Assembly (NCBI GenBank): GCA_963826535.1
Contig: CAWGXL010000011.1
Location: 128,809 to 192,808, forward strand
Direction of reading: 5' to 3'
DNA: 64,000 bases
DNA from: an uncultured bacterium
GTDB taxonomy: Bacteria > Patescibacteriota > Microgenomatia > Levybacterales > UBA12049
Position 1 is the first letter of the stretch. Every line of letters begins with the position of its first letter. Below are positions 966 to 32,100 of this stretch, piece after piece. Under the pieces are notes generated by a model that worked only from the letters and a program-made list of their open reading frames with translations, ran no database searches and was not told the DNA's origin. The translations under genes were made by a program, and so were the position numbers.

Positions 966-3260
966 ATGAATCCTTCCGATATATATGCAGTTCTACAATG
1001 GTGGTTGACCATCTTTATTATAGGTACCGGCTTCCTGCCGATTACGCTTTTGCTCTTCTCTAGTTTTTTTGACAAAGGGTATATTTTCTCCAAAGTTCTA
1101 GGAGTCGCTATAGCTTCATATGCTGTTTTTATTTTCGGCATCCTTCATCTTGTGCCTTTCAACCAAATAACAGCGTTTTTTGTTTTTTTATTTGTTGCTA
1201 TTGTGTTTACTTATTTTCTTCCAATGAAATGGCATGTTATTTATTTATTGAAACATAATTGGAAAATATTTATTTTTGAAGAGATTTTCTTTTTAGTCGC
1301 GATTTTTACTTGGGTCTATATTCATAGTTATAATCCGGATATTCATGGGCTGGAGAAATATATGGACTATGGGTTTATAAATTCAATACTGCGAGCCGAT
1401 TACTTCCCTCCAAAAGATATGTGGTTCCCGCCTGAGTTGATCAATTACTATTACTACGGTCATTTTATTACCGCATTTCTCACCAAACTCTCCGGGGTGC
1501 CTTCAGCTCTCACGTTTAATATCATGTTATCAACTATTTTTGCATGGTGCCTGACTGAGACATTCTCGATCGGCGCGAATCTATTCACATTCGCGCATAA
1601 AAAATTGCCGCAGGCAAAAATTAAATTTAAGCTGATCGTAGCAGGTTTATTAACTGCGCTTTTGACAACACTAGGCGGAAATTTGCATATCATCTACGCG
1701 TTTTTCGCACCGTATAAAACCGATAACCCAAAACCATTCTGGGAATTGGATTTTTTACCTTTGACTTTTCCGAACTCTTATTGGTACCCCAATGCCACAA
1801 GATATATTTATAATACAATTCATGAATTTCCGATTTATTCCTGGGTTGTTGCAGATGTGCACGGACACGTCCTGGATATTCCGTTTGTCCTTTTAATTAT
1901 AGCTTTGCTTTTAGCGCTATTTATTAAGGCAGATCCATCTGCTGAAGAGGAAATAACTGATGAAAAGTGGCACAAGTCCTGGATCATGCACGCCAAATTA
2001 AGACGATTTACAGCTAATTTCTCACTTCACCCACTCTCAATCATTCTTTTGGGTTTTTTGCTTGCTATAATGTATATGACCAACGCATGGGATGGAGCAA
2101 TCTATTTACTGCTAGTAGCACTTGTGATTTTTTACTTAGTTCGGGAAAGAATAAGCGAAGAGTCCAATGCATCACTTGTATCAGAACGCCCAAAACTTGA
2201 TATCATTGCAGCAAAAGGACAACGCCGCCCCAAATTCAAAATTCCTAAATCATTCTGGTTGTTTTATATTCGTTTATTTGTACCCATTATTCTAGTAGTA
2301 ACTACTTTTATAATTTTTTCTTTTCCCTATAACCATTATTTTAAACCTTTTGTTTCCGGAATTGGAGTTCTTTGTGCACCGTCTTTTCTAACGAAAATAG
2401 GTCAATTGGGGCCATTTATATTTGAAGCGGAACACTGTCAGCGTTCATTTTGGTGGGAATTTTTAATGCTATATGGATTCTTCTACTTTTTTGTTTTTAC
2501 GTTCATAATATACCTGGTTTGGAAAAAAAAGATTCTACGTATAGATGTGTTCGTACTGCTTTTAATTATCCTTTCATCACTTCTGATTTTTCTGCCGGAA
2601 TTCATCTATGTAAAAGATATATATCCTGCGCATTTTCGGGCTAACACTATGTTTAAATTGGTATTCCAAGCATTTATTATGCTCTCGCTTGTAAGTGTGT
2701 ATGTTATTGCGAGAATTTCACAAAGTCGTGTGCGTTTTATCTTTTTCCCAATTTCACTTGTTTTAATTATGCTAGTAATGACCTACCCGTATATGGCTAT
2801 TGGTTCATATTATGGGGATTTAAAAGCATATAAAGGACTGCATGGGACCACATATTTAAATACGCTTTATCCCAGCGATTATGCCGGAATTTTATGGCTT
2901 AATGCCTATGTAAAAGGTCAGCCTGTAATTTTGGAAGCACAAGGTGATTCTTATACTGATTATGCACGTGTTTCTGCAAATACGGGTCTACCAACAGTAC
3001 TGGGATGGACGGTACACGAATGGCTCTGGAGAGGAGAATACAGTATTCCGGCACCCAGGATTACAGATATAACAAATATATATGAAACTAATGATTTAGA
3101 TGTAGCTAAAAAATTGCTGAAAAAATATAAGGTAAAATACGTCTTTATCGGTACAATGGAATACGAAAAATATCCCAATCTTGATGAGAAAAAATTTGAG
3201 AAATTAGGAAAAGTGGTTTTTCAACAAGATAAAACTAAAATATATGAAATTTTAAGGTGA
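966..3260 (+). CDS. DUF2298-like polytopic membrane protein, putative GT-C-type glycosyltransferase
   Basis: 764 aa with more than 12 hydrophobic helices. 'GLEKYMDYGFINSILRADYFPPKDMWFPPELINYYYYGHF' is typical of DUF2298 proteins of CPR and archaea. Confidence 0.5.
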   Translation: MNPSDIYAVLQWWLTIFIIGTGFLPITLLLFSSFFDKGYIFSKVLGVAIASYAVFIFGILHLVPFNQITAFFVFLFVAIVFTYFLPMKWHVIYLLKHNWKIFIFEEIFFLVAIFTWVYIHSYNPDIHGLEKYMDYGFINSILRADYFPPKDMWFPPELINYYYYGHFITAFLTKLSGVPSALTFNIMLSTIFAWCLTETFSIGANLFTFAHKKLPQAKIKFKLIVAGLLTALLTTLGGNLHIIYAFFAPYKTDNPKPFWELDFLPLTFPNSYWYPNATRYIYNTIHEFPIYSWVVADVHGHVLDIPFVLLIIALLLALFIKADPSAEEEITDEKWHKSWIMHAKLRRFTANFSLHPLSIILLGFLLAIMYMTNAWDGAIYLLLVALVIFYLVRERISEESNASLVSERPKLDIIAAKGQRRPKFKIPKSFWLFYIRLFVPIILVVTTFIIFSFPYNHYFKPFVSGIGVLCAPSFLTKIGQLGPFIFEAEHCQRSFWWEFLMLYGFFYFFVFTFIIYLVWKKKILRIDVFVLLLIILSSLLIFLPEFIYVKDIYPAHFRANTMFKLVFQAFIMLSLVSVYVIARISQSRVRFIFFPISLVLIMLVMTYPYMAIGSYYGDLKAYKGLHGTTYLNTLYPSDYAGILWLNAYVKGQPVILEAQGDSYTDYARVSANTGLPTVLGWTVHEWLWRGEYSIPAPRITDITNIYETNDLDVAKKLLKKYKVKYVFIGTMEYEKYPNLDEKKFEKLGKVVFQQDKTKIYEILR

Positions 3261-3273
3261 AATTTATTCCTAT

Positions 3274-3762
3274 ATGCCAGAACACAGTGAGGGCGTTCCA
3301 GTATCTGAAGAAGAATTCTCTCAGGAGATACTGAAAGAATCAGTAGGTCATTTAAAGGATAAATTTGAAATGCAATTTGAAACTTCTAGAATAAATAAAT
3401 ATGGAATTAGGATGGATAAATATAGAGGAAAGTCATCGATAGTGGATCCTAACTCTTTAAGCGTATATTATCAAAATGATCAAAATTTTCTTCGTATAGG
3501 TGAACCATTATGGAAGATAGATAAACCAAATAAAGATAGAGTGGAAATTTATAGAGTCAAAGGTAACATAACAGAAGGAATAATTATAGAAACAAGAGCG
3601 CCCTACTTAGTACAATATGAATATACACAGTTTAGCCATTACGATTTGAACTCTCCTAAAGCAAAAAGTGAGGTGGAGGAAAATGTACTGATTAAAAATA
3701 CCCAAGGCACTATTTTAAAGGCTGAGGGGTTAATCTCAGACATTCCCCAGGTTTTAAAATGA
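3274..3762 (+). CDS. hypothetical protein
   Basis: Clean 162-aa ORF directly after the preceding gene; no recognisable motif. Confidence 0.4.
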   Translation: MPEHSEGVPVSEEEFSQEILKESVGHLKDKFEMQFETSRINKYGIRMDKYRGKSSIVDPNSLSVYYQNDQNFLRIGEPLWKIDKPNKDRVEIYRVKGNITEGIIIETRAPYLVQYEYTQFSHYDLNSPKAKSEVEENVLIKNTQGTILKAEGLISDIPQVLK

Positions 3763-3855
3763 TTTAAGTTTATCAAGGTTGAATCCATATATTTTGTGAC
3801 AATTGTAAAAGTCGCATTAGAAAATTAACACAACTTGCAATATTATGATGAAGAA

Positions 3856-4995
3856 TTATGGTGAAGGTTTTTTGGAAGTGATGTTGCTGCAGTTGCCTTT
3901 ATTTATTTCACAATCAACATATTTCTTAATTTCTGAATAGTTTCCATTACCTGCGGCCGGGATAAGTACCCATTGCATTCCATACTCATCTCTAGTCTGC
4001 GGTATCATAAGTAACCCGGCCCGGCCGGTTATACTATCTCCGGTATCCAGAATAGCGCTTTTAATTTTGGCTTCTTGTAACTTTTGGGTAAGTCTAATGA
4101 AGTCATCATATTCATCTTCCTTGATATCGCTTGCAACGCTATCCTTTACAACATTAATTAGATCTAAAGCTATGACTGGGTTAAGAAGTACATCTAGGGA
4201 AAATATTTTCTCTTTAAAAGCTTCAATTATTTTCTCCTGCCTAATCGAGCGGGCAAAATCAGATCCTTCCTGGCCAAGCGCGTGACGTGAACGAACATAT
4301 TTTAGTGCTGTTGTTCCATCCATAAGAGAGGAACCTTTATCAAAATGCAGATGTTCATACCTGCAAGGAAAAAACTCAGACTCGGTCGCACTACCTGTAG
4401 CAATTTGCGCTGAAAAGGAGGCAATATCTGTTTCATTAAATCCACAGGGGTCCACTTCTTTGCCGGTAACCGGATATGCGTAATCATCAAAAGCGCGATC
4501 AACTGTGACATCAAGTCCTCCAAGCTTATCAACCGCTTTTGTAAATCCATCAAAGTCAATTTTTATAGCATAATCAACATCCAAACCAAGTACTTTTCCG
4601 ACAATTGCCTTGGCCATTAATAATCCTCCACCTTTCTGCTCCATTTCTCCATAAGTATAGGCGGAGTTAATTTTTGCTTTAAGTTCAGGTGCCCAAAGAT
4701 CGCGCGGAATTGAAACAAGCAAGGCATTTTTAGTATTTGGATCAATGGTGGCAAAAATAATCGTATCGGTCAGATCAGGGCCCTCATGTACCCCGCCTCC
4801 AACACCTAGAAGAAGAACATTAATCCGTTTTTTTTCCGTCTGTTTTAATTCAATTTTATTGTTCGTAACTACCTGTACGCCTATTGAAAAATATTTCCAA
4901 GCCTTAACTCCTATTATTCCAAGAATCACTATAAAAAAAACAATTAACACCAAGACTCCCTTGTTTAAATTCTTTGAATTTCGTTGAGTTCGCAT
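3856..4995 (-). CDS. LytR-CpsA-Psr (LCP) family cell-envelope phosphotransferase
   Basis: N-terminal TM anchor followed by 'NVLLLGVGGG...DTIIFATIDPNTKNALLVSIPRDLW', the LCP-domain signature. Confidence 0.85.
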   Translation of the reverse strand: MRTQRNSKNLNKGVLVLIVFFIVILGIIGVKAWKYFSIGVQVVTNNKIELKQTEKKRINVLLLGVGGGVHEGPDLTDTIIFATIDPNTKNALLVSIPRDLWAPELKAKINSAYTYGEMEQKGGGLLMAKAIVGKVLGLDVDYAIKIDFDGFTKAVDKLGGLDVTVDRAFDDYAYPVTGKEVDPCGFNETDIASFSAQIATGSATESEFFPCRYEHLHFDKGSSLMDGTTALKYVRSRHALGQEGSDFARSIRQEKIIEAFKEKIFSLDVLLNPVIALDLINVVKDSVASDIKEDEYDDFIRLTQKLQEAKIKSAILDTGDSITGRAGLLMIPQTRDEYGMQWVLIPAAGNGNYSEIKKYVDCEINKGNCSNITSKKPSP

Positions 4996-5001
4996 AAATA
5001 G

Positions 5002-5676
5002 CTAGAGAGAAGCGTTTTTGATCAGGTCTGTGAATTTAAGCGCATCGAGACTGGCGGCGCCTATTAACGCGCCGCTAATATGTTCCATTTGCACAAAACT
5101 CCGAATGTTTGCGCTGGTCACACTACCCCCGTAAAGCACAGAGGTAATGTTCGGATATTTATTTATAATCATGCCCGCTACCCTTTGCGCGTTTTCAGGC
5201 GTATCAGGATTGCCGGTTCCGATTGCGGTAGGCGGTTCATAAGCTACTAAACTAACTCCAACTGGCACAACGGTATTCTCATTTTGAATGCAATAAATTG
5301 GTGTTAAACCCGCTACCAGTGCCTGTGTAACTTTTGCAGCAAGCATCGCATCGTCCTCCTTAAAATTAATCCGTCTTTCGGAATGACCGATAATCGTATA
5401 GTCTGCGAATTCTTTAACCTGTTTGGCGTTAACCTCGCCAGTATAAGCGCCCTGTTCAAAAGGGGAAAGATCTTGTGCCCCGAGTGCGAGTTGCATTTTA
5501 TGATCATTTATCCAAGAATGCACATACGGAAGGAGCGTAAACGCAGGACAGAGAATAATTTCTTTGTCCTCGAATTTATTATTTGAAGTTATATCAAGGA
5601 ATGCTTTCAGCCAATCATGAGCTTCTTGGCTGTTCTTGTTTGATTTCCAGTTGGCAATGAGAAAAACCTTCTTCAT
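5002..5676 (-). CDS. tpiA: triosephosphate isomerase
   Basis: 'IANWKSN', 'IIGHSERR' and 'AYEPPTAIGTG' match the TIM catalytic motifs. Confidence 0.85.
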   Translation of the reverse strand: MKKVFLIANWKSNKNSQEAHDWLKAFLDITSNNKFEDKEIILCPAFTLLPYVHSWINDHKMQLALGAQDLSPFEQGAYTGEVNAKQVKEFADYTIIGHSERRINFKEDDAMLAAKVTQALVAGLTPIYCIQNENTVVPVGVSLVAYEPPTAIGTGNPDTPENAQRVAGMIINKYPNITSVLYGGSVTSANIRSFVQMEHISGALIGAASLDALKFTDLIKNASL

Positions 5677-5720
5677 GTGATAAAATTTGATATAGGAATT
5701 AAGTTTAATTATTATACTCT

Positions 5721-7550
5721 ATGACAGACACACTACTCAAGGATTTAAATCCGCAGCAGCAAAAAGCGGTATTGCAAACAGATGGGCCAACAATAATACT
5801 CGCGGGTGCGGGAAGCGGAAAAACCCGTGTTCTCATGTATAAAGTAATATATTTAATGCTGGTAAAAAAGATTCCCCCCGAATCAATATTGGCAGTCACA
5901 TTTACCAACAAAGCTGCTAATGAAATGAAAGAGCGGATCGCGCGATATCTATTGGAAAACAGTCTGGATAAATTACAGGGAAAGCCCTGGCTCTCAACGT
6001 TCCATTCGCTCTGTGCGAAAATACTGCGCATTGATGGCAAGCATATCGGCTTCTCACCGAAATTCGCAATCTATGATTCTCAAGACCAGATTGAAGCGAC
6101 CAAAGTGGCAATGAACAAGCTTATGATTTCGACAAAAGACTTTAAACCATCATCCATACATGCGACTATTTCATCTGCTAAAAACGAACTAATTACGAGC
6201 GAGGATTATCCGATATATGCGAGGGGATATTTTCAAGAGACAGTCGCCAAAATTTACCCTGTGTATCAATCACTGCTGAAAGAAAACGATGCGCTTGATT
6301 TCGATGATTTAATCTTACTAACGATCCGGTTATTTAAGGAAAATGAACAAGTTCTTAAAAAATATCAAGCCCGGTTTGAATATTTACTAGTAGACGAATA
6401 TCAGGATACCAACAGGGCTCAATATTTGCTAACGCGACTCTTAAGCGCGAAATATCAAAATATTTGTGTAGTCGGGGATTTCTCACAAAGTATATATAGC
6501 TGGCGGGGAGCCGACTACCGCAACCTTATACGATTCAAAGACGACTATAAGGGCACAAAGACATTTTCCCTGGAGCAAAATTACCGTTCAACCCAAATAA
6601 TTCTAGATGGAGCAACAACTATTGTCGGGAAGAATATGTCGCATCCGATACTCAAACTCTGGACAAAAAATCCGCAAGGCGAGGAAATAGAAATTTACGA
6701 AGCGAATAGTGAACAGGATGAAGCAGAATTTATTATTCGTAAAATTATAGAGCTGAATATAAAAAGTTTACATGAGGTGGCTGTTTTATATCGTACCAAC
6801 GCCCAATCCCGTGTACTCGAAGAAGTATTGCTGCATCATTCGGTCCCATATATTCTCATTGGGGGTATCAGATTCTACGAGCGCAAGGAAGTAAAAGACG
6901 TGCTCTCCTATCTTCGACTTATTGATAACCCCAAAGATATGATCTCCTACCGCAGAGCGGAAAAGCTTGGGAAGGGCAGGCTCGCCAAATTTCTGGAATA
7001 CCAAAATAAAATTGAAAGTAAAAGTAATATTAAAACTATTGATGTTTTAGACGGGGTTTTAAAAGCAACACAATATCTGGATTTATATGATGAGAAAATT
7101 GTAGAAGACAGTACGCGCCTCGAAAACATAAAAGAACTTCGCTCAGTCGCAATCAGTTTTCCTGATTTGACAGACTTTTTGGAAAATGTAGCGTTGGTTG
7201 AACAGGAATATTTATCCGATAAGACAAAAAACCTGCCTGCCGGCAGGCAGGAGAATGCGATCACGCTCATGACGCTACACGCTGCTAAAGGGCTGGAATT
7301 CCCGGCTGTTTTTATGATCGGCATGGAAGAAGGACTTTTTCCCCATAGCCGGAGTCTTATGGATAGACATGAACTTGAGGAAGAACGCCGCCTTTGTTAT
7401 GTTGGCATGACGCGCGCTAAAGATAAACTATTCCTGACATATGCGAGAAGGAGACTATTTTTTGGGCAGCGAACGAGTAATACCATTTCCCGTTTTCTGC
7501 TAGAATTACCTGAACATTTAGTTATCAAAAAGGAAACAGTTGAGTACTAG
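5721..7550 (+). CDS. uvrD: ATP-dependent DNA helicase, UvrD/PcrA family
   Basis: Walker A 'AGAGSGKTRVL', 'LVDEYQDTN' and 'TLHAAKGLEF' motifs of SF1 UvrD helicases. Confidence 0.9.
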   Translation: MTDTLLKDLNPQQQKAVLQTDGPTIILAGAGSGKTRVLMYKVIYLMLVKKIPPESILAVTFTNKAANEMKERIARYLLENSLDKLQGKPWLSTFHSLCAKILRIDGKHIGFSPKFAIYDSQDQIEATKVAMNKLMISTKDFKPSSIHATISSAKNELITSEDYPIYARGYFQETVAKIYPVYQSLLKENDALDFDDLILLTIRLFKENEQVLKKYQARFEYLLVDEYQDTNRAQYLLTRLLSAKYQNICVVGDFSQSIYSWRGADYRNLIRFKDDYKGTKTFSLEQNYRSTQIILDGATTIVGKNMSHPILKLWTKNPQGEEIEIYEANSEQDEAEFIIRKIIELNIKSLHEVAVLYRTNAQSRVLEEVLLHHSVPYILIGGIRFYERKEVKDVLSYLRLIDNPKDMISYRRAEKLGKGRLAKFLEYQNKIESKSNIKTIDVLDGVLKATQYLDLYDEKIVEDSTRLENIKELRSVAISFPDLTDFLENVALVEQEYLSDKTKNLPAGRQENAITLMTLHAAKGLEFPAVFMIGMEEGLFPHSRSLMDRHELEEERRLCYVGMTRAKDKLFLTYARRRLFFGQRTSNTISRFLLELPEHLVIKKETVEY

Positions 7551-7552
7551 TT

Positions 7553-8590
7553 ATGGAGATCCGTGTAATTACAGAAAAAGAGAGAGATGCATATAATGCT
7601 GTTGTTATTCATCCCCTCCAGTCTTTTGAATGGGGAGAATTTCGGGAGAAAACCGGAATCAAAGTCGTACGCCGTGCCTTTATTGAAAAAGAAAAAATAG
7701 TAAATGGCTTTTCGCTTACAATTCACAAAATCCCCCACACGCAATTTAATATCGGCTATCTTCCAAAAGGAAATATGCCGGATCAAGAATTATTGAAAGA
7801 ATTACAAAAAATTGGTAGAGCGGAAAAATGTATTTTCATTCAGCTTGAACCAAATGTTCAAAAAAATTCAGGTCAACCATCAACCATCAACCATAAATTA
7901 TTAGCACCAGCTGCCCATCCCCTATTTACTAAATATACATTTTTTTTAGACTTAACTAAATCCGAGGATGAGCTGTTAAAAGTTATGCATCCGAAGGCAC
8001 GTTACAATATTCGGGTTGCTATCAAGCATGGTGTTGAAATTATTGAAGAGAATTCCAAAAATGCGTTTGATGAATATTGGAGACTTATGGAAGAAACAAC
8101 CAGGAGACAAGGTTTTTATGCGCACTCCGAAAAGTATCATCGATTGATGTGGGAAACATTAGATAAAACAAAAATCAAAAATCAAAAATCAAAACAAATT
8201 AATGAATTAACCGCTCATTTGTTAACAGCTAGATATAAAGACAAAATTCTGACCGCCTGGATTCTTTTTGTCTTCAAAGACACCATATATTATCCATATG
8301 GCGCGTCAAGTAATGAAAATAGAGAAGTAATGGCAAGTAATTTGATCATGTGGGAGGCAATACGCTTTGGGAAAAAATTGGGATTAAAGAAATTTGATAT
8401 GTGGGGCGCGCTCGGTCCAAATCCAGATCGCAAAGATCCATGGTTTGGGTTTCATACTTTTAAAGAGAAATATGCACCGGAACATGTGGAATTCATCGGG
8501 AGTTACGATCTGGTAATTAATCCATTACTTTATCAAGTTTATAAACTCGTAGACAAACTCCGCTGGTTTTATTTGAAATTGAAAAAATAA
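7553..8590 (+). CDS. FemAB-family peptidoglycan peptide-bridge aminoacyltransferase
   Basis: 'HPKARYNIRVAIKHGVEI', a C-terminal 'FK..Y' block and ~340 aa length are typical of the FemABX/MurM fold. Start overlaps the uvrD stop. Confidence 0.7.
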   Translation: MEIRVITEKERDAYNAVVIHPLQSFEWGEFREKTGIKVVRRAFIEKEKIVNGFSLTIHKIPHTQFNIGYLPKGNMPDQELLKELQKIGRAEKCIFIQLEPNVQKNSGQPSTINHKLLAPAAHPLFTKYTFFLDLTKSEDELLKVMHPKARYNIRVAIKHGVEIIEENSKNAFDEYWRLMEETTRRQGFYAHSEKYHRLMWETLDKTKIKNQKSKQINELTAHLLTARYKDKILTAWILFVFKDTIYYPYGASSNENREVMASNLIMWEAIRFGKKLGLKKFDMWGALGPNPDRKDPWFGFHTFKEKYAPEHVEFIGSYDLVINPLLYQVYKLVDKLRWFYLKLKK

Positions 8591-8631
8591 GATATCAAAT
8601 AATAAGTTACGGATTCTTCTGTTTTTTAATT

Positions 8632-9036
8632 TTATTGAGGTAAACCCAAATGCTTTTCAATTTTTGTAACTCGTCTATCCAGCTTAGTATCACCCTCATC
8701 ATAATTTCTGGCAATAATATCAACAGTTTTTCTAAGCCAGTGCAGATCTTTTTTGATCAGCTTTAATTTTTTCTCAACAACCTTTTCAATTCTTGGCTCA
8801 AGACTACCATCAATTCTATTTATATCTTCCTTAACCCCATTTAAATCTTTTCTAACACTACTTATATCTTCTTTAACACTACTTATATCTTCTTTAATAG
8901 GCTTGAGTTTTTCTTCAATAACAGAATCAATCCCCTTAATATCCTCCTTAACAGGTTTAAGTTTAGCTTCAACCACGGAGTCAATCTCCTCGTGCATGAT
9001 GGATCTTATTTCTGTTAAATCATTTTTCGTCAACAT
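8632..9036 (-). CDS. coiled-coil repeat protein
   Basis: Repeated 'IEEKLKPIKEDI / SSVKEDISSV / NGVKEDINRI' heptad-like units. Contains a perfect 21-bp in-frame tandem duplication. Confidence 0.5.
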   Translation of the reverse strand: MLTKNDLTEIRSIMHEEIDSVVEAKLKPVKEDIKGIDSVIEEKLKPIKEDISSVKEDISSVRKDLNGVKEDINRIDGSLEPRIEKVVEKKLKLIKKDLHWLRKTVDIIARNYDEGDTKLDRRVTKIEKHLGLPQ

Positions 9037-9101
9037 AGAATTATATTATTAATAAAGAAGGGGCTTATTACAAGAGGGCAAACTATATCAAAAAGAGAGG
9101 A

Positions 9102-9638
9102 CTATTTTTTATTTTTTGGAATTTCATAGAGATAGATTTCATTTTTTAAATCTTGATGAATTATCGGCATATCAAGTTTATATACAACGGTGACAATACG
9201 CGTACCGGGCTTAAGTTCCTTAAGCAATTTCGGACGAAGCTTGGCCAGAGCTTTGGGTACAAGATACATAAAGACGACTGTCGCCTCTGTTATATCTGAG
9301 CTGAAAAAGTTTTTTCTGATAATTTTAACTTTCTTCCATTGACCGCTCAGCAAAACCATAAGCTTGGCAAGCGCTACACGCAAAGGATCTATCTCGACCC
9401 CGACTGCACGCGCACCAAACTCCTTTGCTGCGGTAATCAAAAACATTGCGTCGCCTGAACCAAGATCATATACAACATCATTTTTACCAATTTTTGCAAA
9501 CTTACATACGAGCCGTGAACGTTTGCTATCCGTGCGCCACCATGGGGACCAGGGACTATCCGGAGGCCAAACCATAGATAATAAGAAAACTAATAAAAGG
9601 ATGGTTACAAATAGGATTAAATAAGTAATGAGCTCCAT
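9102..9638 (-). CDS. class I SAM-dependent methyltransferase with N-terminal TM helix
   Basis: 'VYDLGSGDAMFLITAAKEFGARAVGVEIDP' is a SAM-binding motif I / post-I pair. Confidence 0.7.
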   Translation of the reverse strand: MELITYLILFVTILLLVFLLSMVWPPDSPWSPWWRTDSKRSRLVCKFAKIGKNDVVYDLGSGDAMFLITAAKEFGARAVGVEIDPLRVALAKLMVLLSGQWKKVKIIRKNFFSSDITEATVVFMYLVPKALAKLRPKLLKELKPGTRIVTVVYKLDMPIIHQDLKNEIYLYEIPKNKK

Positions 9639-9641
9639 CTA

Positions 9642-9989
9642 TTATAAAAATACTTTCCCTATAATACTCTTCTTTTCTATCATACCAAATTTTCGGCTAT
9701 CAGTGCTTGCGTTTGTGTTATCTCCAGTGACAAAATATGTATTGTTTTCAATTTTTTGAATTCGTTTAATCAGTATCTTTCCATCGCGTGGATCTATAAG
9801 CGCAATAATATCAAATATTTGGGGATTTTTAAAAATGTAAGCAAACCTGTTAACCAACACCGTAGAGTTGTTTTGAAATGTTGGAACCATACTATTTCCT
9901 AAAATTCTAAATCTGTAAATAGGGGAAAAATTAAGAAAAAAAGCTCTAAACAGATTTTGTCTTCTTGAAGACAACATCGATTTCATCAA
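9642..9989 (-). CDS. sodX: S26-family signal-peptidase-like protease, putative Ni-SOD maturation protease
   Basis: 'GNSMVPTF' (catalytic Ser box) and 'GDNTNASTDSR' (box E) of type I signal peptidases. Immediately downstream of and overlapping sodN, as for SodX. Confidence 0.65.
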   Translation of the reverse strand: MMKSMLSSRRQNLFRAFFLNFSPIYRFRILGNSMVPTFQNNSTVLVNRFAYIFKNPQIFDIIALIDPRDGKILIKRIQKIENNTYFVTGDNTNASTDSRKFGMIEKKSIIGKVFL

Positions 9990-10362
9990 TAAGAGCTAGT
10001 AATTTTTGTGCATCAGCCGGATCTACCGATTTTTTTGTTTGCCCTGCTGCTTTTGTTGCCCGCCAAAAGAGATCATGCAACGCAGGAAATTTTATCACAT
10101 GTTCCGGTTTAAAATAGTCTGTCCAAAGTACCCAAAGGTGATGTTTTACCAATTCTGCCCGTTCTTCTTTAATAAGGATTGCGCGTATGCGGAATATTTC
10201 ATCCTTTGATTCCCGATACTTATTCATTGTATTGAGGATGCTTTCAGCTTCAATCTTTGCCTGAGCCGGATCATAAACGCCGCATGGCAAATCACAATGG
10301 GCGTAAGCTGTTTGGGTCGGAAGAAGATTTGCAAGAATCTGATAGAGCGTAAGTCTCATCAA
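9946..10362 (-). CDS. sodN: nickel-containing superoxide dismutase precursor
   Basis: Leader 'MMRLTLYQILANLLPTQTAYA' followed by 'HCDLPCGVYDPAQA', the Ni-hook motif exposed after leader cleavage. Confidence 0.85.
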   Translation of the reverse strand: MMRLTLYQILANLLPTQTAYAHCDLPCGVYDPAQAKIEAESILNTMNKYRESKDEIFRIRAILIKEERAELVKHHLWVLWTDYFKPEHVIKFPALHDLFWRATKAAGQTKKSVDPADAQKLLALIDEIDVVFKKTKSV

Positions 10363-10457: not shown

Positions 10458-11174
10458 ATGAAATATTTGAAACAAACACTTCTAATTTTTGTACTTGTTC
10501 TATTTGGTATTGTAATATATTTTTCTGCTTCACTTGGACTAACAAGTCTTTTTATCTTTCCTATTTTAATTATTTCCGGATATATTATTTATTATTTGCA
10601 TAAACAATTTGAAGAGGATAATAAAAAACAGCTTGAACAGAGTGTAAAGTATGCGATAGAAGACATCGAGGCCGCGGAATGGATTAAAAATTCTCTTATC
10701 CCGCAAACTATAGCGAAAGCCAGGAGAAAACATTGGACCTTAATTATTTATAGTTTTATTTTCGCGGCGGGAATTTATTTTCTATGGAGCTATTTAAATG
10801 CGGACTTGTTAACTGCGATACGTGACCTGATCTTGGCGTGCATTTTATTTTGGTTACTTATATATTATATTTACTCTGCACCATTTATTTTCAACTGGTT
10901 CATACGCTTCCTGCCTGGAAAAATAAAAAAATATAATTTTGGAGATTGGGGAAGGGCTTATTTTTTTCTATTACCGGTTAGTATTATCATTTATTTGCTT
11001 TATCCCATTGAGAGTTTACTTAAGGATTTAGCAGGTAAACTTGTGTCAATTCCTATTTTCTTTCTGATATATACATTTTCATTTCTAAGCCTTTACAGTA
11101 TGATGTATATCTATAAAGATATGCAAAAAGAAGAGAAAAAACAACTTGAAAAGGAAATAAAAGATCTACTTTAA
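10458..11174 (+). CDS. hypothetical multi-pass membrane protein
   Basis: Several hydrophobic helices and a C-terminal Lys/Glu-rich tail. Confidence 0.45.
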   Translation: MKYLKQTLLIFVLVLFGIVIYFSASLGLTSLFIFPILIISGYIIYYLHKQFEEDNKKQLEQSVKYAIEDIEAAEWIKNSLIPQTIAKARRKHWTLIIYSFIFAAGIYFLWSYLNADLLTAIRDLILACILFWLLIYYIYSAPFIFNWFIRFLPGKIKKYNFGDWGRAYFFLLPVSIIIYLLYPIESLLKDLAGKLVSIPIFFLIYTFSFLSLYSMMYIYKDMQKEEKKQLEKEIKDLL

Positions 11175-12351: not shown

Positions 12352-13011
12352 TTAATTTTTGTTTCCCGCCAATTGATTGGCAAGTTTATCTGCGCGCGTA
12401 TTGTTTACGTCGCCTGAGTGTCCAATCACCTTTTCAAAATACACTTTTAAATTATAATGCTTAATTAGCGCCTCAATTTTTTGAAAAATTTCTATGTTTT
12501 GTTTAATTTGATTGCTTGGTTTCTTTATATTATTAATTGTAATTTGACTATCCGAATAAATTTTTACTTTTTGGTATTGATTTTTAGCTGCCCAATCTAG
12601 TGCATGAAAAATAGCCAATCCCTCAGCAACATTATTGGTTTGCTTAGTGCCCGGTACCAGTCCTGCTTTTTCGATTACACCAGCAACAAAAGCCCAAGCA
12701 GCCCTAGCATTATGTTGCCCGTTAAAAACACAAGCGCCGTCAGTCCATATCTCAATGTCATACTTATTCCTGTCATTCTGAGGTGTAACAGAAGAATCCT
12801 CTTCAAATAGAGAACGAGATCCTTCGACAAGCTCAGGATGACTCACTACGTTCGTCACTTTAAACTTGTCGTCATGATAAATTTTGTGACAGTAGGGACA
12901 AAAATAATATGCAGTGTAATAATATGGTTGTTTTAACTGCGACGGTTTTTTTTGTGTCTTGCGCTGGATTAACTTACTTCCACAGGTTCTACATCTTTTC
13001 TGCTCTGACAT
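12352..13011 (-). CDS. rnhA: ribonuclease HI with N-terminal zinc-ribbon
   Basis: 'IEIWTDGAC', 'YSDSQ' and 'GHSGDVNNTRADKLA' catalytic DEDD/His blocks. N-terminal CxxC...CxxC. Confidence 0.85.
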   Translation of the reverse strand: MSEQKRCRTCGSKLIQRKTQKKPSQLKQPYYYTAYYFCPYCHKIYHDDKFKVTNVVSHPELVEGSRSLFEEDSSVTPQNDRNKYDIEIWTDGACVFNGQHNARAAWAFVAGVIEKAGLVPGTKQTNNVAEGLAIFHALDWAAKNQYQKVKIYSDSQITINNIKKPSNQIKQNIEIFQKIEALIKHYNLKVYFEKVIGHSGDVNNTRADKLANQLAGNKN

Positions 13012-13089: not shown

Positions 13090-14562
13090 TTAAGATGACT
13101 TTTTTTGTACTTGGAGATGTTTAGTAAGTATTAAGCGCGCAGTGTCGTCAAGGTCAGAACGTTCTTGTGCCTCTAATAGAATTTCTTTTGATCGTTTAGA
13201 GTCCTCGAGTTGCGATATTGCAAGAATTGCTTCTATTTGAACCTCAGCAGATTTTTCTTCAAGAAGTGTCGTTCTTATAGCCTCAATTGCTTCTTTATTA
13301 CTCATGTAAAACAGCGACGCGACAGCTACTGCTCGAACGTGTTTACTTTCGTCTGTTTTCATTGAATCGATTAAGACTGCCGTAATAGCAGGGTGGGGAT
13401 GTGTCGCTAGCTCTTTAATAGCGGCTACACGTATGGAAACTCTGTTGTTTTTCAAATCTATATACAACTTTGCTAGTTCAGGGACTGATTTTATTTCTGA
13501 TTCTTTGTTGAATTTTTCTGCAACCTTGTTAATAAACTTTTCGATTGAATTCCGTATGTTTTCATCATTATTTTCTTCAATAGTGTTTATTTCTGCCATG
13601 AACTCTTTCAGGGCGGTGCCTCCCAGTGTTAATAGTTCCGAGAAGCCGATATCCAATGGATGGGTTCTTTCCGGCGTATTAAGAATGTTGATATTTTTGC
13701 TTGCGTTTGGAGAAACGATAATAACGCGCATATTTTTCAGTCGATTTGTAATCTGAGCTTTGATATGTAGGTCTCTCAAGCTATTGCCGGCAATGATTAA
13801 GATCTTTGTTTCCCTCAAAACATCACCAAATAAGGAGCTCAGTTGAGAATAAGGATCTCCAAAAATCTCTTTTTCTAGAGTAGGAATAATCATAAGAGGC
13901 TTCAGAACTTGGTCGTTTCTCGTTAAGTGAAAATCATAAGCAGGTAATGAGTATCCACGATCAAGCCGGTGAAATACTTTACCAGTGGCATCTACATACC
14001 AGTTCACAGATCCATGCAATTTTATTATGCGTAGTGCTTCGGCAAAAGTACCCTCCCAATTTGCTACCGTCTGACTACCTTCAGTTTTGAAACCATCAGA
14101 GTAAGGTAGCTTCAGCTGTTCGCTAACATATTCAAGAATTCTATCATAGTTTGTTGTGAAAACGTGCATTGGTGCTACCTTACTTAATTCTAGAATTATC
14201 TTGAACTCTCTTTGAGCTTTTGGTCTGTCAAATCGTTCACATGTGTCCACAATAAAAGCATCAAGGTAGCCCCGGAGCTGACGTGCTGTCTCTAACTTTT
14301 TCTTTATGTGATCTGTTTCAGTTACTCCAAGTAATACCATGCCCTCCGTTCCGGTTGTGATAACTTGTAAATCTGCCAAAAGGGTTTCGAGATCATTATC
14401 TCTTTTGCCACCAGATATTTCTAACTCCTTAAGAAATGCAAAGCATCCCGGATGCCGACTTTCAAGATAATCTCTAAATTGCGCATAGAATCCAGCCATC
14501 ATTGGTACACTATATGGCGACGATGCTCCTGCTCCAAGGAGAAAGGATATTGGATAGGTCAT
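13090..14562 (-). CDS. SIR2_2-family (putative NADase) protein with C-terminal HEAT/PBS-lyase-like repeats
   Basis: 'FLLGAGAS', 'VFTTNYDRILE' and 'KLHGSVNW' are SIR2_2 hallmarks. The C-terminus has repeated 'VR.AA...L' HEAT units. The start overlaps the stop of the upstream ATPase (ATGA). Confidence 0.8.
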   Translation of the reverse strand: MTYPISFLLGAGASSPYSVPMMAGFYAQFRDYLESRHPGCFAFLKELEISGGKRDNDLETLLADLQVITTGTEGMVLLGVTETDHIKKKLETARQLRGYLDAFIVDTCERFDRPKAQREFKIILELSKVAPMHVFTTNYDRILEYVSEQLKLPYSDGFKTEGSQTVANWEGTFAEALRIIKLHGSVNWYVDATGKVFHRLDRGYSLPAYDFHLTRNDQVLKPLMIIPTLEKEIFGDPYSQLSSLFGDVLRETKILIIAGNSLRDLHIKAQITNRLKNMRVIIVSPNASKNINILNTPERTHPLDIGFSELLTLGGTALKEFMAEINTIEENNDENIRNSIEKFINKVAEKFNKESEIKSVPELAKLYIDLKNNRVSIRVAAIKELATHPHPAITAVLIDSMKTDESKHVRAVAVASLFYMSNKEAIEAIRTTLLEEKSAEVQIEAILAISQLEDSKRSKEILLEAQERSDLDDTARLILTKHLQVQKKSS

Positions 14563-16436
14563 TCTTTCCTCTCCTCCTTTTTTATCAGTTCGTCAATCTT
14601 ATTTTTCAAGAATTCCTTCAAGAGAGGACTAGTTGAGAGCTGTGCTTTTTCATGAAGTTCCGGGTCAGTCAGCAACTTTTTGATCTTCCTCTGAGCAGAT
14701 ACAGTCCCATAAGCACTATCAAGATCTAGGTAGACCTGAAGTAATTGTCTTCTGACAGGATTACCTGCTACTTCAGGAATTATTTTCAGAATTTCTTGGA
14801 CTTCTTTGCTCGAAAAATTCATCAATTTTCCTCCTACATCTCTTATGACACGATCAGTGGTGTCTGGAAGATCAACCAGCTTAAACTCCTGTTCAAGTCC
14901 TAATAGCAGACTGAATAATTCGCTTTCCGCTATTGGTTCGAGCATAACTTCTTCCAAAGTTGCTTCATCAACGTGAATCCATCTGTATGAGTTTTTGCTA
15001 CATTCTTGGGATAAAATATCAGCTTCATGAAAGTTGACATTCTGTGTTTGTCCGTTGATCTCTACAGGAAAAGTTCTGTTCTGACATCGAATCACGAGTT
15101 CTCCTCTTAAGAGGAGATGTGCTATTCTTATATCTCTTGTTTGGACAGATTCTGTAATTTGTGCTGAACTGCTGCCTTGTTGAATCGATTGTTGGAATTG
15201 CTTCACTGCTTCTTCCTCTCTTACATAGTATAATCTTTTCGTATCCTTTGCCTTATCGATAATTGCTTTGACTGATAATCTTTTGTCAACTCCCAACTCC
15301 CTTACTCGTATCACTTTGGGTAACAAATTCTCGAGTTTTTGCAGGATATCGTTATCAAGGATTGATTTGGTTTGTCCGTAGTAAAGAATTGCAACATATT
15401 TGTCTATTTGGCCCATATCTACGCCTTTTGGGTCGTCTTCCAACGACTTTTCTATTTCACCAATTTTTTTTCTGACCAGTTGATTATAAAAACTTAGAAG
15501 ACGTTTCCCCAATTCCTGCCACTTATCATCGGGCTGGAATCCATCTCTACTCATCAAGATATTCAGTCCTCCAGGAAGAACGTCAATTTCGCCAATATAT
15601 CCTACTGCATGTTGGGAAATAAGAGTCTTATCATTATCTAATACCAGAAAGCCACCATTGCAAATGGTAAGGCTGCTCTGGATTGTCGCGCCGGCACTCT
15701 CCCATGTGTTATCAAGTGCAAGGAATCCTGATATTACGGAGGAATCTTTCACTTCAATTGCTCCTTCGATATTCGCGCCTTTCCATTTTTCAGTAACCTT
15801 CTTTTTCTCTTGCGTATCTACTTTTTCTATTTCGATAAACGATGCGTGTCTAGCATATTGTTCTACAGCATCAGAAACTTGATTGGCATTCATTGCCCCG
15901 CTAGGCTTCAATAAGAGCTTTACGGAAGTTCCACGGAGAGTGGGAATATCGGTAATTTCCACAAACTTTTCTTTTGGACCCATAACAGCAAATGCGATTC
16001 CAGTTTCTTCCTCCATTTTAGTTTTTACCTCAACTCTGTCAGCAACTCCAAAGCAACTCAAAATCCCGATCCCGAATTTTCCGATTTGGAAGTTTTTATT
16101 TCCAGACTGTTTAAGAAGTGCTTGTATATGAGGGACATCTTGTTTGGATGCTCCGACTGTAGCAAAGCTTTTTTGCAAGGATTCTTTGTTCATTCCTAGA
16201 CCATCATCGGTAATCTCAACCCAGTTTTCAGCAACAGAATAGCGTACTAAAATATTCGGAGAATAAGATGGATACTTGATTTTTTGAAGGCTGCATGCAT
16301 CCTCGGCATTTTGTAAAAGCTCCCGTATTGCAGTATATGCGGATTTATAGAGGTTATTTCCAATCAGGAGATCAAAGACATTATCATGGAGAGTAAAACG
16401 CATATCTTTCATAATATTATGGGAGGCTAGTTTCAT
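14559..16436 (-). CDS. Hsp90/HtpG-like GHKL ATPase (divergent)
   Basis: Bergerat-fold motifs 'IRELLQNAEDA', 'ITDDGLGM' and 'IGKFGIGILSCF'. Further HtpG-like blocks ('GTSVKLLLKP', 'ASFIEIEK', 'LNILMSRD'). 625 aa, about HtpG length. Confidence 0.7.
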   Translation of the reverse strand: MKLASHNIMKDMRFTLHDNVFDLLIGNNLYKSAYTAIRELLQNAEDACSLQKIKYPSYSPNILVRYSVAENWVEITDDGLGMNKESLQKSFATVGASKQDVPHIQALLKQSGNKNFQIGKFGIGILSCFGVADRVEVKTKMEEETGIAFAVMGPKEKFVEITDIPTLRGTSVKLLLKPSGAMNANQVSDAVEQYARHASFIEIEKVDTQEKKKVTEKWKGANIEGAIEVKDSSVISGFLALDNTWESAGATIQSSLTICNGGFLVLDNDKTLISQHAVGYIGEIDVLPGGLNILMSRDGFQPDDKWQELGKRLLSFYNQLVRKKIGEIEKSLEDDPKGVDMGQIDKYVAILYYGQTKSILDNDILQKLENLLPKVIRVRELGVDKRLSVKAIIDKAKDTKRLYYVREEEAVKQFQQSIQQGSSSAQITESVQTRDIRIAHLLLRGELVIRCQNRTFPVEINGQTQNVNFHEADILSQECSKNSYRWIHVDEATLEEVMLEPIAESELFSLLLGLEQEFKLVDLPDTTDRVIRDVGGKLMNFSSKEVQEILKIIPEVAGNPVRRQLLQVYLDLDSAYGTVSAQRKIKKLLTDPELHEKAQLSTSPLLKEFLKNKIDELIKKEERKE

Positions 16437-16450
16437 ATTGAGCTTTTTGT

Positions 16451-16468
16451 AGTGCTAATTTTAGCACT
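16451..16468. promoter_or_regulatory. inverted repeat AGTGCTAA-tt-TTAGCACT upstream of the ATPase/SIR2 operon
   Basis: 8-bp arms with a 2-bp spacer, 15 bp upstream of the ATG at 16436 on the minus strand, inside a 300-bp AT-rich divergent promoter region. Confidence 0.3.
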
Positions 16469-16738
16469 TTATGCTCATGATTGATAGTTACCGGCTGATT
16501 CTAAATTCGGATAAAAGGAGAGAAGGTAAAATAGTCGTCAGGCTTAAAATTTGAGAAAATAGTTTCGGACTTCTGTAAGTCCTTAGGATAGTTAAGCAAT
16601 CAATCCAACATCCAACATCATTAGTAAAATTAAGTGAGTTTTCTTCGGGAGAAAGAAAAAGCGGAAAGCTGAACTACTTGGGGGGCGTAAATTGCTCAGG
16701 TAGTTGCAAAAGTTTGAAAAAAAGTTTATTATTTAAAT

Positions 16739-18087: not shown

Positions 18088-18516
18088 ATGGGAGAAAATT
18101 TAATTGCAAAAAGTTCAATCGTGATAAATGCTCCGGTTGCAAAAGTTTGGGATGCTCTGGTAAATCCCGATATGATTAAGCAATATATGTTCGGAACCAA
18201 TGTTGTCTCAGATTGGAAGGCGCGCAGTCCGGTTGTTTGGAAAGGTGTTTGGAAAGGTAAAGCGTATGAGGACAAAGGTGTGATTCTCAAAATAGAGCCG
18301 GAGAAAAAACTTCAATATACGCATTTCAGCCCGCTTTCAGGCGCTTCTGATATTCCTGAAAACTATCATACCCTGACCTATGAATTGAAAGAGCAAGGAG
18401 ACAATATGCAAGTAATACTATCTCAAGATAATAATTCAAGCGAAAAGGAGCGGGAGCATTCGCAAAAAATGTGGGCTAGTATGTTGGAAGGCTTAAAGAA
18501 AGTTTTGGAAAAGTGA
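18088..18516 (+). CDS. SRPBCC/AHSA1-family protein
   Basis: 'INAPVAKVWDALVNPDMIKQYMFG' matches the N-terminal block of Aha1/START-like SRPBCC proteins. Confidence 0.65.
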   Translation: MGENLIAKSSIVINAPVAKVWDALVNPDMIKQYMFGTNVVSDWKARSPVVWKGVWKGKAYEDKGVILKIEPEKKLQYTHFSPLSGASDIPENYHTLTYELKEQGDNMQVILSQDNNSSEKEREHSQKMWASMLEGLKKVLEK

Positions 18517-29115: not shown

Positions 29116-32100
29116 TTACCCTGTCTTTTCGGCCGATTGGTCAACCTCTTCGGTGGGCGGGACTTCTGGTGTTGCTGCGGTTTCAATTTTGTCAGTTTTG
29201 TCGATAACCTCTTGCGCTTCAAGTGATTTCTGTAGTTCCACAACCTGATCTTTAATTTTTTCAGAAGCGACTTCTTCTTTCACTTCAACTGCTTCATTAT
29301 AGACTACCGCACCTACCGGCACAACATTTAGCCCGAGAGACTGTAATTCTTTGATAAGTACTTTGAAAGATTCGGGAACTTTGGGTGTTGGGATGTCGGT
29401 TCCTTTGACAATAGCTTCAAATGCCTTTGCACGACCTACTATATCGTCCGATTTAATAGTTAACATTTCTTGTAAAATATAGCGCGCGCGATGTGCCTCC
29501 AATGCCCAGACTTCCATTTCTCCTAATCTCTGTCCACCCATTTGTGCTTTTCCACCGAGGGGTTGTTGGGTAACTAGCGAATATGGACCTGTTGAGCGCG
29601 CGTGTGTTTTATCTTCAACCATGTGAATAAGTTTCATAATATATTCAATTCCAACAACAACTTCATTTTGGTATGGCAAACCTGTACGACCATCTAATAA
29701 TTGAACCTTGCCATGAACTGGCAGCCCTGCTTGCTTAAGTAATTTGACAATTTTGTCTTCGGAAATTTTTTCAAAAACAGGTACGCCAATTTTCATATTG
29801 AGTTTTTGTGCGGCAAAACCAAGATGCGCTTCAAGAAGTTGACCCAGATTCATACGGGCAAGCACGCTAATCGGAGAAATAATGATATCAATCGGTGTGC
29901 CGTCGGACAGACACGGCATGTCAGCGATTGGCAGAATTCGGGAAATAATTCCTTTATTTCCGTGCCGGCCGGCCAATTTGTCGCCAACAACTACATGACG
30001 GAATTGGGCGACTTCAATAATAATCTTTCGAGTGGTGCCCGGTTCAAGCTCGTCGCCCTGTTTTCTATCGAGGATTTGAATATTAATAACTGTTCCTCTT
30101 TCACCATGCGGCATACGAAGGCTGGTATCGCGAACTTCACGTGCTTGTTCTCCAAAGATGGCGCGGAGTAATCTTTCTTCGGCTGTTAATTCCGTTTCGC
30201 CTTTGGGAGCAATTTTGCCAACTAAAATATCTCCAGGCGAAACTTCACTTCCGAGCACGACAATCCCGGTTTCATCAAGATTGGCAAGGTCTTCTTCTGA
30301 GACATTTGGGATATCGCGGGTTGTTTCTTCCGGCCCAAGTTTGGTTTCGACAACAGCAGCTTCATATTTCTCAATATGAATTGAAGATAGAATATTTTCT
30401 TTGACCAAACGATCCGAGATGACAATAGCATCTTCATATCCCAATCCGTCAAGCGATGCATATGCAATCAGGAGATTTCGTCCAAGGGCTAATTCTCCGT
30501 TTTGGGCTGAGGGTCCATCAATAATAACATCTTCCTTCTTAACTGATTGTCCCATAACCACAAGCGGACGCTGTGTATAGGAGGTTGCTTGTGATGTCCG
30601 CTGGAATGTCTCGACTTTGTATGTTTCTTTTTTATCACCTTTACCTTCTATTACTACTTTTTCAGAATCGACATAGATTATTTTTCCGTTAAACGGGGCC
30701 TTCACTACTCTTTTCATAACTTCCGCAATGGTCGACTCCATGCCGGTGCCAACAATCGGACTCTCGGGATGAACAAGCGGCACAGCCTGACATTGCATGT
30801 GTGTTCCCATAAGTGCACGGTTGGCTTCGTCATGGGCAATAAAAGGAATTAATGATGCCGAAGTACCGACTACCTGACGCGGCACGACATCAATGTATTC
30901 AATTGCTTCGCGGTCAACTTCGATAAAGTCTCCCTTATATCTTGCGGGAACCCGTTGGTCTAGTATTTCTCCTTTATCCGAGATGGAAATACCTGCATGA
31001 GTTATGTGATGCCCTAATTCGTCATCTGCTGTCAGATAAACGATTTCATCGGTAATTTTAACAGAATTTTTCCCTCCTCTTTTCTCTTTTATAACTTTCT
31101 TGTAAGGGGATTCAAGGAAACCATATTCATTTACTTTTGCATAGAGGGCTTTATATGTTACGAGACCAATATTTGGACCTTCAGGACTTCTAATCGGATC
31201 AATTCTTCCATATTGAGAACTGTTGATATCGCGAATAGAAAATGCGGCTCTTTCTCTGGAAATACCTCCTGTTCCCATGACAGTTAAACGGTTAAGATTG
31301 TCGATTTCAGAAAGCGGATTGGTTTGGTCGAGGATAGTTGAGAGTTGGGAAGTACGAAAGAATTCATTAATGGCTGCCATAATCGGACGTGCATTGATAA
31401 GATTGGCAACAGCTATGGGTGTATCCGGCTGCAGAAGGCTCATGCGTTCCTTAATGCTTCTTTCAACTCTAAGAATTCCAAGGCGGAAGGCATTAATGGC
31501 GACCAGTTCTCCAACACTTCTGACTCGGCGATTGGCAAGACTATCAATGTCATCAATATCACCCCTACCTTGCTCAAGCATTATAAGGTAGGAGATTGTG
31601 GCTATAATATCATCTACGTTCAAAACATGTTCCTCAGATGGGGTAAAACCCGGGACCTTCTTGAGGCGTTTGTTTATTTTATATCTCCCAACAACTCCGA
31701 GATCATAGCGGCGATTATTGAAGAAGAGATTGGTAAAATATTCTCTAACTTTATCCAAAACAATCGGCTCACCCGGATGCATTTTTTTGAAAATTTCGAC
31801 AATTGCCTCTATTTCATTGCTTGCTTCATCCTTCTCTAAGGTATTATCGATAAATGATATTTCCCTACCTTCTTCCAGGTTCTTGAATTTTTCTTTAATG
31901 GCAGCATTCTCTGAAATTCCGAGCGCACGTAAAAATGTGGTTGCAAGAAATTTGCGTCTGCGGTCAATTTTTACTGTAATCGTACCATAACGAGTTGTGG
32001 CAAACTCGAGCCAAGAACCATGAGTTGGGCGAATTTCTGTGGAGTAAAGTGTCCTGCCGGTAATTGGGTCTTGTGTTCCAATAAAAAATACTCCCGGAGA

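Follow-up and report, generated by a model that had tools for sequence, protein, structure and literature searches.

A probable two-gene conflict module pairing an Hsp90-like ATPase with a SIR2-HEAT protein in a Patescibacteria genome

What might an Hsp90-type ATPase do when its gene runs directly into that of a SIR2 protein? The stretch of DNA analysed here, hereafter the window, is a 64-kb segment of contig CAWGXL010000011.1 from an uncultured small-genome bacterium of the Patescibacteriota, within the candidate phyla radiation (CPR), and it contains two overlapping minus-strand genes that encode an Hsp90-family (GHKL) ATPase and a protein in which a SIR2_2 domain is followed by HEAT repeats. 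We propose that this pair is probably a horizontally mobile two-gene conflict module, most likely one that acts against phages by abortive infection. NAD+-hydrolysing SIR2 enzymes (NADases) recur as effectors of bacterial immunity, in Thoeris, DSR, SIR2-HerA, short pAgo and Avs5 systems; what differs among these systems is how infection is sensed, and this is poorly understood. To our knowledge, the engine of the Hsp90 family is known solely as a chaperone of protein clients. Judged from sequence and comparative data, it is credible that the pair is an ATPase-regulated defence of the SIR2 NADase type, with an ATPase unlike the known HerA partner, and that it is apparently undescribed. The two genes, their junction and their predicted domains are as follows.

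14559..16436, minus strand: gene 1, Hsp90-family (GHKL) ATPase, 625 amino acids (aa) as the longest open reading frame (ORF)
15792..16403, minus strand: N-terminal Bergerat ATP-binding domain of the ATPase, aa 12-215
15072..15791, minus strand: Hsp90-type middle domain of the ATPase, aa 216-455
14562..15071, minus strand: family-specific C-terminal domain of the ATPase, aa 456-625
14559..14575, minus strand: translational-coupling junction, with AGGAG at 14575..14571 and then ATGA
13090..14562, minus strand: gene 2, SIR2_2-HEAT protein, 490 aa
13573..14562, minus strand: SIR2 (NAD-binding Rossmann) domain, about aa 1-330, with the GAGAS loop
13093..13566, minus strand: HEAT/PBS-lyase-type helical repeat domain, about aa 333-490

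The two reading frames overlap by ATGA at 14559-14562, exactly as the initial annotation of the window had placed them: the TGA stop codon of the ATPase (14561..14559) shares these four nucleotides with the ATG of the SIR2-HEAT gene (14562..14560), and a Shine-Dalgarno-like AGGAG lies 9 nt upstream of the SIR2-HEAT start. The minus-strand sequence of the junction is AGGAGAGGAAAGA-ATGA-CC, and the longer stretch reads AGGAGAGGAAAGAATGACC. The length of 625 aa originally given for the ATPase is that of the longest ORF and needs one qualification. In the family alignment the homologues begin at the equivalent of M12 (MRF...), which makes 16403 a possible true start in place of 16436.

The linkage of the two genes is conserved. 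In each of the 12 other loci recovered, the ATPase gene is followed directly by the SIR2-HEAT gene with an overlap of 1, 4 or 8 nt, and this extends to loci reached through SIR2-HEAT proteins whose identity to the query is only 31-33%. The ATPase and the SIR2-HEAT protein have pairwise distance matrices that correlate at r = 0.954, a value that none of 5000 Mantel permutations attained, and the two proteins have the same mean divergence. No third gene is conserved across the pair loci, and the other genes of the window are unlinked to the pair elsewhere. The G+C (GC) content of the flanks ranges from 0.31 to 0.65 among the pair loci; the pair itself falls below its flanks by up to 14.5 points (0.507 versus 0.652 in locus L088), and the lower GC of the pair in several loci argues for horizontal transfer. 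Full-length homologues number about 56 for the ATPase and about 110 for the SIR2-HEAT protein, all of them metagenomic. A scan of GTDB genomes with the ATPase alignment returned at least 80 loci from many phyla; since only the N domain (aa 8-215) was matched, we regard these as paralogues and not as orthologous pairs.

What kind of ATPase is it? The Bergerat motifs recognised in the initial annotation (RELLQNAEDA, ITDDGLGM and GKFGIGILSCF) are present, and in an alignment of 53 family members the residues E39, N43, D46, D77-G79-G81, G122, G124 and R297 are invariant. E39 is the catalytic Glu, N43 the Mg-binding Asn, and G122 and G124 are the lid glycines. Single-sequence searches capture little beyond this domain: the only Pfam match is HATPase_c_3 (E 1.8e-7), Pfam HSP90 (PF00183) does not match, and the NCBIfam models of the HSP90 family (NF010683, PRK14083; 83.8 bits, cut-off 455) and of the HtpG equivalog (75.9 bits, cut-off 371) match aa 18-215 only. 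Family profiles reach further. The ATPase profile matches HtpG (1y4s) with E 7.5e-26 over profile positions 8-209, and hhalign against an HtpG alignment places residues 11-455 on HtpG 12-472 with a probability of 99.6% and E 9.8e-24, a span that corresponds to the N domain plus essentially the entire middle domain. Within it, R297 lies in a conserved NREGF loop and is aligned with the catalytic-loop Arg of HtpG (NVSRE). The proposal that the protein is a highly divergent Hsp90-family member was therefore borne out by this alignment.

The similarity to HtpG does not continue to the C-terminus. The last 170 aa are predicted to form a beta-rich part and then a helical bundle, and they carry the conserved motifs RVIRDxxGRLLN and GNPVRR; compared with the HtpG dimerisation domain they show no similarity (hhalign probability 0.35%), nor do they match any PDB sequence or Pfam family. 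An end-to-end alignment with HtpG, which would have pointed to an ordinary chaperone, was thus not obtained. Since the N and middle domains align with HtpG and the C-terminal domain does not, the ATPase is a genuine Hsp90 paralogue, in which the ATPase engine is intact and the C-terminus has been replaced, and no HtpG orthologue. We suggest that the C-terminal domain serves in dimerisation, in partner docking, or in both.

The second protein is a SIR2 enzyme of the type found in defence systems. Its SIR2_2 hallmarks (FLLGAGAS, VFTTNYDRILE and KLHGSVNW) were correctly read from the sequence: SIR2_2 (PF13289) matches with E 1.6e-9 and 38.4 bits against a cut-off of 24.5, and the PADLOC SIR2 models match with E-values down to 1.2e-23. 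Likewise, the HEAT repeats assigned to its C-terminus are recovered by HEAT_2 above the Pfam threshold (E 2.5e-10), and we consider this domain a candidate partner- or trigger-binding surface. Loss of the catalytic Asn or His would have told against an enzymatic role, and in the alignment of 55 SIR2-HEAT homologues N138, D140 and H183 are all invariant; the GAGAS-loop residues G10, A11, G12 and S14 are at least 90% conserved. The entire protein has just two Cys, and hence no sirtuin Zn module. An AlphaFold2 model of the protein is of high predicted quality (pLDDT 91.7, pTM 0.87), and when it was compared with known structures the classical sirtuins came out at 14-17, ThsA at 15.1 and Avs5 at 13.7, none of these being the closest match.

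Where is the pair found? The initial annotation had allowed that homologous pairs might occupy a conserved core position beside housekeeping genes. Instead, the flanks differ across the 12 other loci, and defence or mobility genes lie within 10 kb of the pair in 8 of the 11 independent loci that have flanks, the window itself being counted among the 11. In five of the eight the neighbours are confirmed by PADLOC, the systems and genes involved being GajA, GajB, a Type III methyltransferase with its restriction enzyme, a Type IIG restriction-modification (RM) enzyme, Mrr and HerA. We judge this frequency, in a small sample and by an expectation formed without a background model, to be far above that for a random gene. 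An operational definition of a defence system is a conserved operon enriched in defence islands, with known defence genes beside it more often than chance, and in this small sample the pair fits that definition. Among all the neighbours, RM components of Types I, IIG, III and IV are represented. The loci with defence or mobility neighbours are listed below.

L004: pair directly after GajA (PADLOC E 1.9e-222), GajB (9.8e-130), an LmuB-like SMC ATPase and an SNF2 helicase
L088: pair directly after a Type III methyltransferase and restriction enzyme (E = 0) and a HicB antitoxin
L089: adjoins an MmeI-type IIG enzyme and a PIN protein
L003: adjoins Mrr, a resolvase and a Type ISP/IIG enzyme
L090: a 75%-identical pair, followed by HsdS and not by RNase HI
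L001: adjoins a serine recombinase, RadC, a HerA-like ATPase and a Dam-type methylase
L172: adjoins a serine recombinase and RadC
L173: adjoins HerA, NurA, a methylase and a transposase fragment

Locus L004 is itself a dense assembly: positions 2695..9943 hold a full Gabija system, the LmuB-like SMC ATPase together with a metallophosphatase, and the SNF2 helicase, and the contig stops soon after the pair.

The relatives of the ATPase outside the family carry effectors of other kinds. The next-best matches to the ATPase profile score 130-177 bits, are 650-950 aa long and have an effector-type domain N-terminal to the ATPase core. Among ten that were sampled, eight have such a domain identified: TIR_2 in four, HD-CE in three and EAD11 in one. 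These fusions share the N and middle core, and in some the profile coverage extends to about position 490-580. In one of them (L087, 1208..3262) a separate small TIR gene comes before the TIR-ATPase fusion, and a phage-type integrase lies nearby. When one conserved NTPase core is joined to different NAD-consuming or nuclease-type effectors, this is the classic mark of a conflict system, and the exchange of effectors among the sister clades bears that mark. As a separate observation, the Hsp90-like ATPases that bear TIR_2, HD-CE or EAD11 (P0267-P0290) form a large set that is apparently uncharacterised.

How could the two proteins work together? We propose that they are made in fixed stoichiometry through translational coupling and form a complex, as the coupling and the co-evolution of the two proteins suggest. 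The ATPase would be a nucleotide-dependent sensor or switch that, as in Hsp90, binds ATP, dimerises through its N-terminal domains and docks the middle-domain Arg; the invariance of its catalytic residues speaks for such a role, in which it may either hold SIR2 inactive or assemble it. An infection cue may be read either by the client-binding surface of the ATPase or by the HEAT domain, the latter as in DSR2. The cue would then alter the assembly and in this way activate the SIR2 domains, which would hydrolyse NAD+ and thereby stop the infected cell. This last step is suggested by the conservation of the catalytic residues and by the resemblance of the predicted structure to the NADase SIR2 of SIR2-HerA.

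A bolder version of the proposal, which we put forward only tentatively and consider rather doubtful, is that the ATPases constitute a dedicated bacterial clade of "immune Hsp90s", in which a client clamp has become an infection sensor wired to interchangeable death effectors. Such a clamp might sense, for example, one phage protein or a surge of phage clients in non-native form, and its effectors would act in trans (SIR2-HEAT) or in cis (TIR, HD-CE or EAD11). If this were true, immune Hsp90s would represent a new sensing principle for abortive infection; they would also be the prokaryotic equivalent, and perhaps a precursor, of the dependence of eukaryotic nucleotide-binding leucine-rich repeat (NLR) receptors on Hsp90.

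Several observations weigh against a role of the pair in defence by NAD+ depletion. The family is small, comprising about 25 full-length clusters at 50% identity and known from metagenomes only, even though 1.84 billion representatives were profile-searched. No homologous pair was found among 72,556 plasmids (for PLSDB, a match had to cover at least 80% of either protein) or among IMG/VR viral contigs. Three of the 11 independent loci (L005, L006 and the window) have no recognisable defence or mobility neighbour, and in the window the genes beside the pair (DUF1761, glyoxalase, GIY-YIG, SRPBCC/AHSA1 and FMN reductase) are ordinary small metabolic or stress genes, with no defence gene adjacent. 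The contigs nearest to the window by their M20 peptidase (74-77% identity) end inside RNase HI, and the site of the pair lies beyond that end. Finally, SIR2 domains are also known as ADP-ribosyltransferases or deacylases.

This last point leads to the alternative that fares best, although we regard it as unlikely. It supposes a conflict module whose SIR2 domain ADP-ribosylates a protein or nucleic acid, or makes a signal derived from ADP-ribose, while the ATPase presents or selects the target as its "client". The same comparative evidence for a conflict role would apply, and an Hsp90-type partner is by ancestry a machine for protein clients. However, no macro-domain or other partner that processes ADP-ribose is conserved in the operon, and in the sister clades the place of SIR2 is taken by TIR or HD-CE, both of them typical terminal effectors.

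A second alternative, to which we assign a low probability, takes the ATPase for a GHKL clamp acting on DNA, of the MORC, paraMORC or MutL type, that senses or compacts foreign DNA within a restriction-like module. GHKL ATPases are known to be fused to or paired with restriction components, several of the neighbours described above are RM systems, and the N domain of the ATPase matches the BbrUII/HgiDII restriction-enzyme model (9.4e-15) and PADLOC REase_II (6.4e-8). Yet a Pfam scan of the ATPase detected no nuclease domain, and both proteins are acidic (median isoelectric point, pI, about 5.4; range 4.9-6.1 in the ATPase family, each domain of the ATPase being acidic too). The acidity is Hsp90-like and gives no suggestion of a DNA-binding surface, and so speaks weakly against a MORC-like clamp.

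Could the pair instead be a selfish addiction module, akin to a toxin-antitoxin system, in which the ATPase restrains a toxic SIR2 NADase and the pair persists through post-segregational killing and has no specific anti-phage role? A coupled, mobile two-gene operon with a potentially lethal effector would fit this description, as would the recombinases and RadC that adjoin the pair in L001 and L172, but an ATP-hydrolysing machine of about 600 aa whose catalytic site is invariant would make an unusually complex antitoxin, and the plasmids searched carry no homologues. We think this very improbable, while noting that the boundary between toxin-antitoxin and abortive-infection systems is blurred, so that it overlaps with the conflict module proposed here. 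It is likewise very improbable that the pair is a housekeeping HtpG-type chaperone with a sirtuin-like regulator or co-chaperone, its HEAT domain acting as adaptor in proteostasis or stress: the window does hold nickel superoxide dismutase (NiSOD), glyoxalase, FMN reductase and an SRPBCC/AHSA1-family gene, and the GC of the pair there equals that of the genome (0.39 versus 0.37), but the family is rare and patchy, its hosts span 31-65% GC, its neighbourhood is different each time (even the 75%-identical pair adjoining HsdS in place of RNase HI), its ATPase reaches 76 of the 371 bits of the HtpG equivalog and has no HtpG C-terminal domain, its SIR2 domain is without the sirtuin Zn module, and the AHSA1-like gene is unlinked to it elsewhere.

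The surroundings of the pair in the window can be described briefly, beginning with the features that adjoin it and the gene that serves to place the host.

12352..13011, minus strand: RNase HI, 78 bp downstream of the pair
16437..16738, no strand assigned: divergent intergenic region, 302 bp, 34% GC
29116..32565: RpoB, 77-88% identical to many metagenomic sequences, of which the few with names are mostly assigned, at about 80% identity, to the Patescibacteria group or Candidatus Levybacteria

The initial annotation had seen an accessory context in the RNase HI gene downstream, the AT-rich region with its palindrome upstream and a block of small stress genes beyond. All of these elements exist. 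RNase HI was rejected as a part of the module, being unlinked to the pair elsewhere and having a promoter-like site of its own. The 302-bp region presumably holds the promoter of the operon, and promoter-like sites in it show no excess over the shuffle expectation. Its perfect 8-2-8 palindrome, AGTGCTAA-AA-TTAGCACT at 16451..16468, was likewise rejected as a conserved operator: nothing like it is kept upstream of the homologues of the pair, and at the density of the window about 0.19 such palindromes are expected per 302 bp, so that it is not beyond chance. Small genes do follow, as described, but they are not linked to the pair elsewhere, and the neighbourhood of the pair in the window is not a defence island.

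One of these small genes bears a suggestive name. Pfam AHSA1 ("Activator of Hsp90 ATPase homolog 1-like") matches, with E 1.3e-21, the SRPBCC protein encoded at 18088..18516 on the plus strand, at a distance of 1.65 kb from the Hsp90-like gene. Since no AHSA1-like gene lies near the pair in the 12 other loci, the proximity is probably a coincidence of naming, and we rejected the gene as a co-chaperone.

Some further features of the window were recorded in their own right. At its N-terminus the RNase HI is extended by about 85 aa that include two CxxC pairs (zinc-ribbon-like), and Pfam RNase_H covers aa 86-214 only. On the minus strand at 9642..10362 lie a nickel superoxide dismutase gene (Sod_Ni, E 6e-42) and a small ORF, which is taken to be a putative SodX-like maturation peptidase. 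This cassette is syntenic in related contigs: those nearest by the M20 peptidase keep the order RNase HI, M20, NiSOD, SodX-like peptidase, methyltransferase, and synteny is lost in a contig whose M20 is 63% identical. Between the M20 peptidase and NiSOD genes the window has a multi-transmembrane ORF of 238 aa (10458..11174, plus strand); in contigs L092, L093 and L096 M20 is followed directly by NiSOD without it, and it looks like a lineage-specific insertion. A 134-aa ORF at 8632..9036 on the minus strand consists mostly of degenerate KEDI(S/K/N)xV repeats with a coiled-coil-like look, and an ORF of similar length lies antisense to it. In the 64-kb window as a whole there are 40 perfect inverted repeats with arms of 8 nt or more and loops of up to 6 nt, compared with 11 +/- 4 in composition-preserving shuffles, and no tRNA genes or Rfam families were found in it.

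If the conflict module proposed here is validated, the pair would define a new class of sensor or switch in prokaryotic immunity and, within the minimal genomes of Patescibacteria, would be one of few defence candidates. It would also offer a simple two-protein system in which to study how an Hsp90-type ATP cycle gates an enzyme, and would open an evolutionary link between chaperones and immune receptors to experiment.

How does the pair compare with systems already described? The initial annotation was aware of no named system that joins an Hsp90/GHKL ATPase to a SIR2-HEAT protein, and we found none in PADLOC-DB 2.0.0 or in the literature searched, which was mostly open access and left subscription journals mostly outside, so that an earlier mention is possible. 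PADLOC-DB 2.0.0 (2023) has no system-specific model for the ATPase, with generic REase_II matches to the N domain only, NCBIfam supplies no more than generic names, and our searches found no described defence system with an Hsp90-family engine. Compared with the Hsp90/HtpG family, TRAP1 and GRP94 included, the ATPase has the Bergerat N domain and a middle domain with the catalytic-loop Arg; it falls short of the curated family thresholds, lacks the C-terminal dimerisation domain, and differs in its patchy distribution and its obligate pairing with an effector gene. The SIR2-HEAT protein exceeds the SIR2_2 profile threshold and has the catalytic Asn, Asp and His and the GAGxS loop of defence-type SIR2 proteins.

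Among these, SIR2-HerA (Nezha) resembles the pair in coupling a SIR2 protein to an ATPase. There, however, the partner is a P-loop hexamer of the HerA/FtsK type, whereas here it has the GHKL/Hsp90 fold, the ATPase matches neither PF01935 nor PADLOC HerA, and the C-terminal HEAT domain is a feature of the SIR2 protein of the present pair. DSR2 has the same order of domains, an N-terminal SIR2 NADase and then HEAT repeats, and the cavity formed by its HEAT repeats binds both a phage tail tube protein, which activates it, and DSAD1, which inhibits it (PMC11263360). DSR2 nevertheless consists of one protein, about 1000-1200 aa long, which assembles into a tetramer and lacks an ATPase partner, in contrast to a 490-aa protein with an obligate one and a HEAT region of only about 150 aa; sequence similarity is negligible, at 14.9 bits for the NCBIfam Dsr2 equivalog against a cut-off of 1400. 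Thoeris ThsA is distinguished by a C-terminal SLOG domain and an adjacent TIR protein, ThsB, and the pair has neither. The GHKL proteins of other defences, namely SLFN-pAgo and the MORC and paraMORC proteins found with RM systems, would share with the pair the principle of a Bergerat-fold nucleotide switch that controls the oligomeric state of an immune effector. In SLFN-pAgo ("Schlatpase"), for example, the binding of ATP to the GHKL domain brings the effector into an active oligomer (bioRxiv 10.64898/2026.05.29.728809). The GHKL domains of these proteins are histidine-kinase-like (PF13749) or of the MutL/MORC type and are fused to nucleases or Argonaute, and none is Hsp90-type or paired with SIR2. 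Closest of all in their ATPase are the TIR, HD-CE and EAD11 fusions, whose N and middle core is the same: in them the effector forms the N-terminal part of one polypeptide with that core, and here it is a separate, translationally coupled protein that bears its own HEAT domain.

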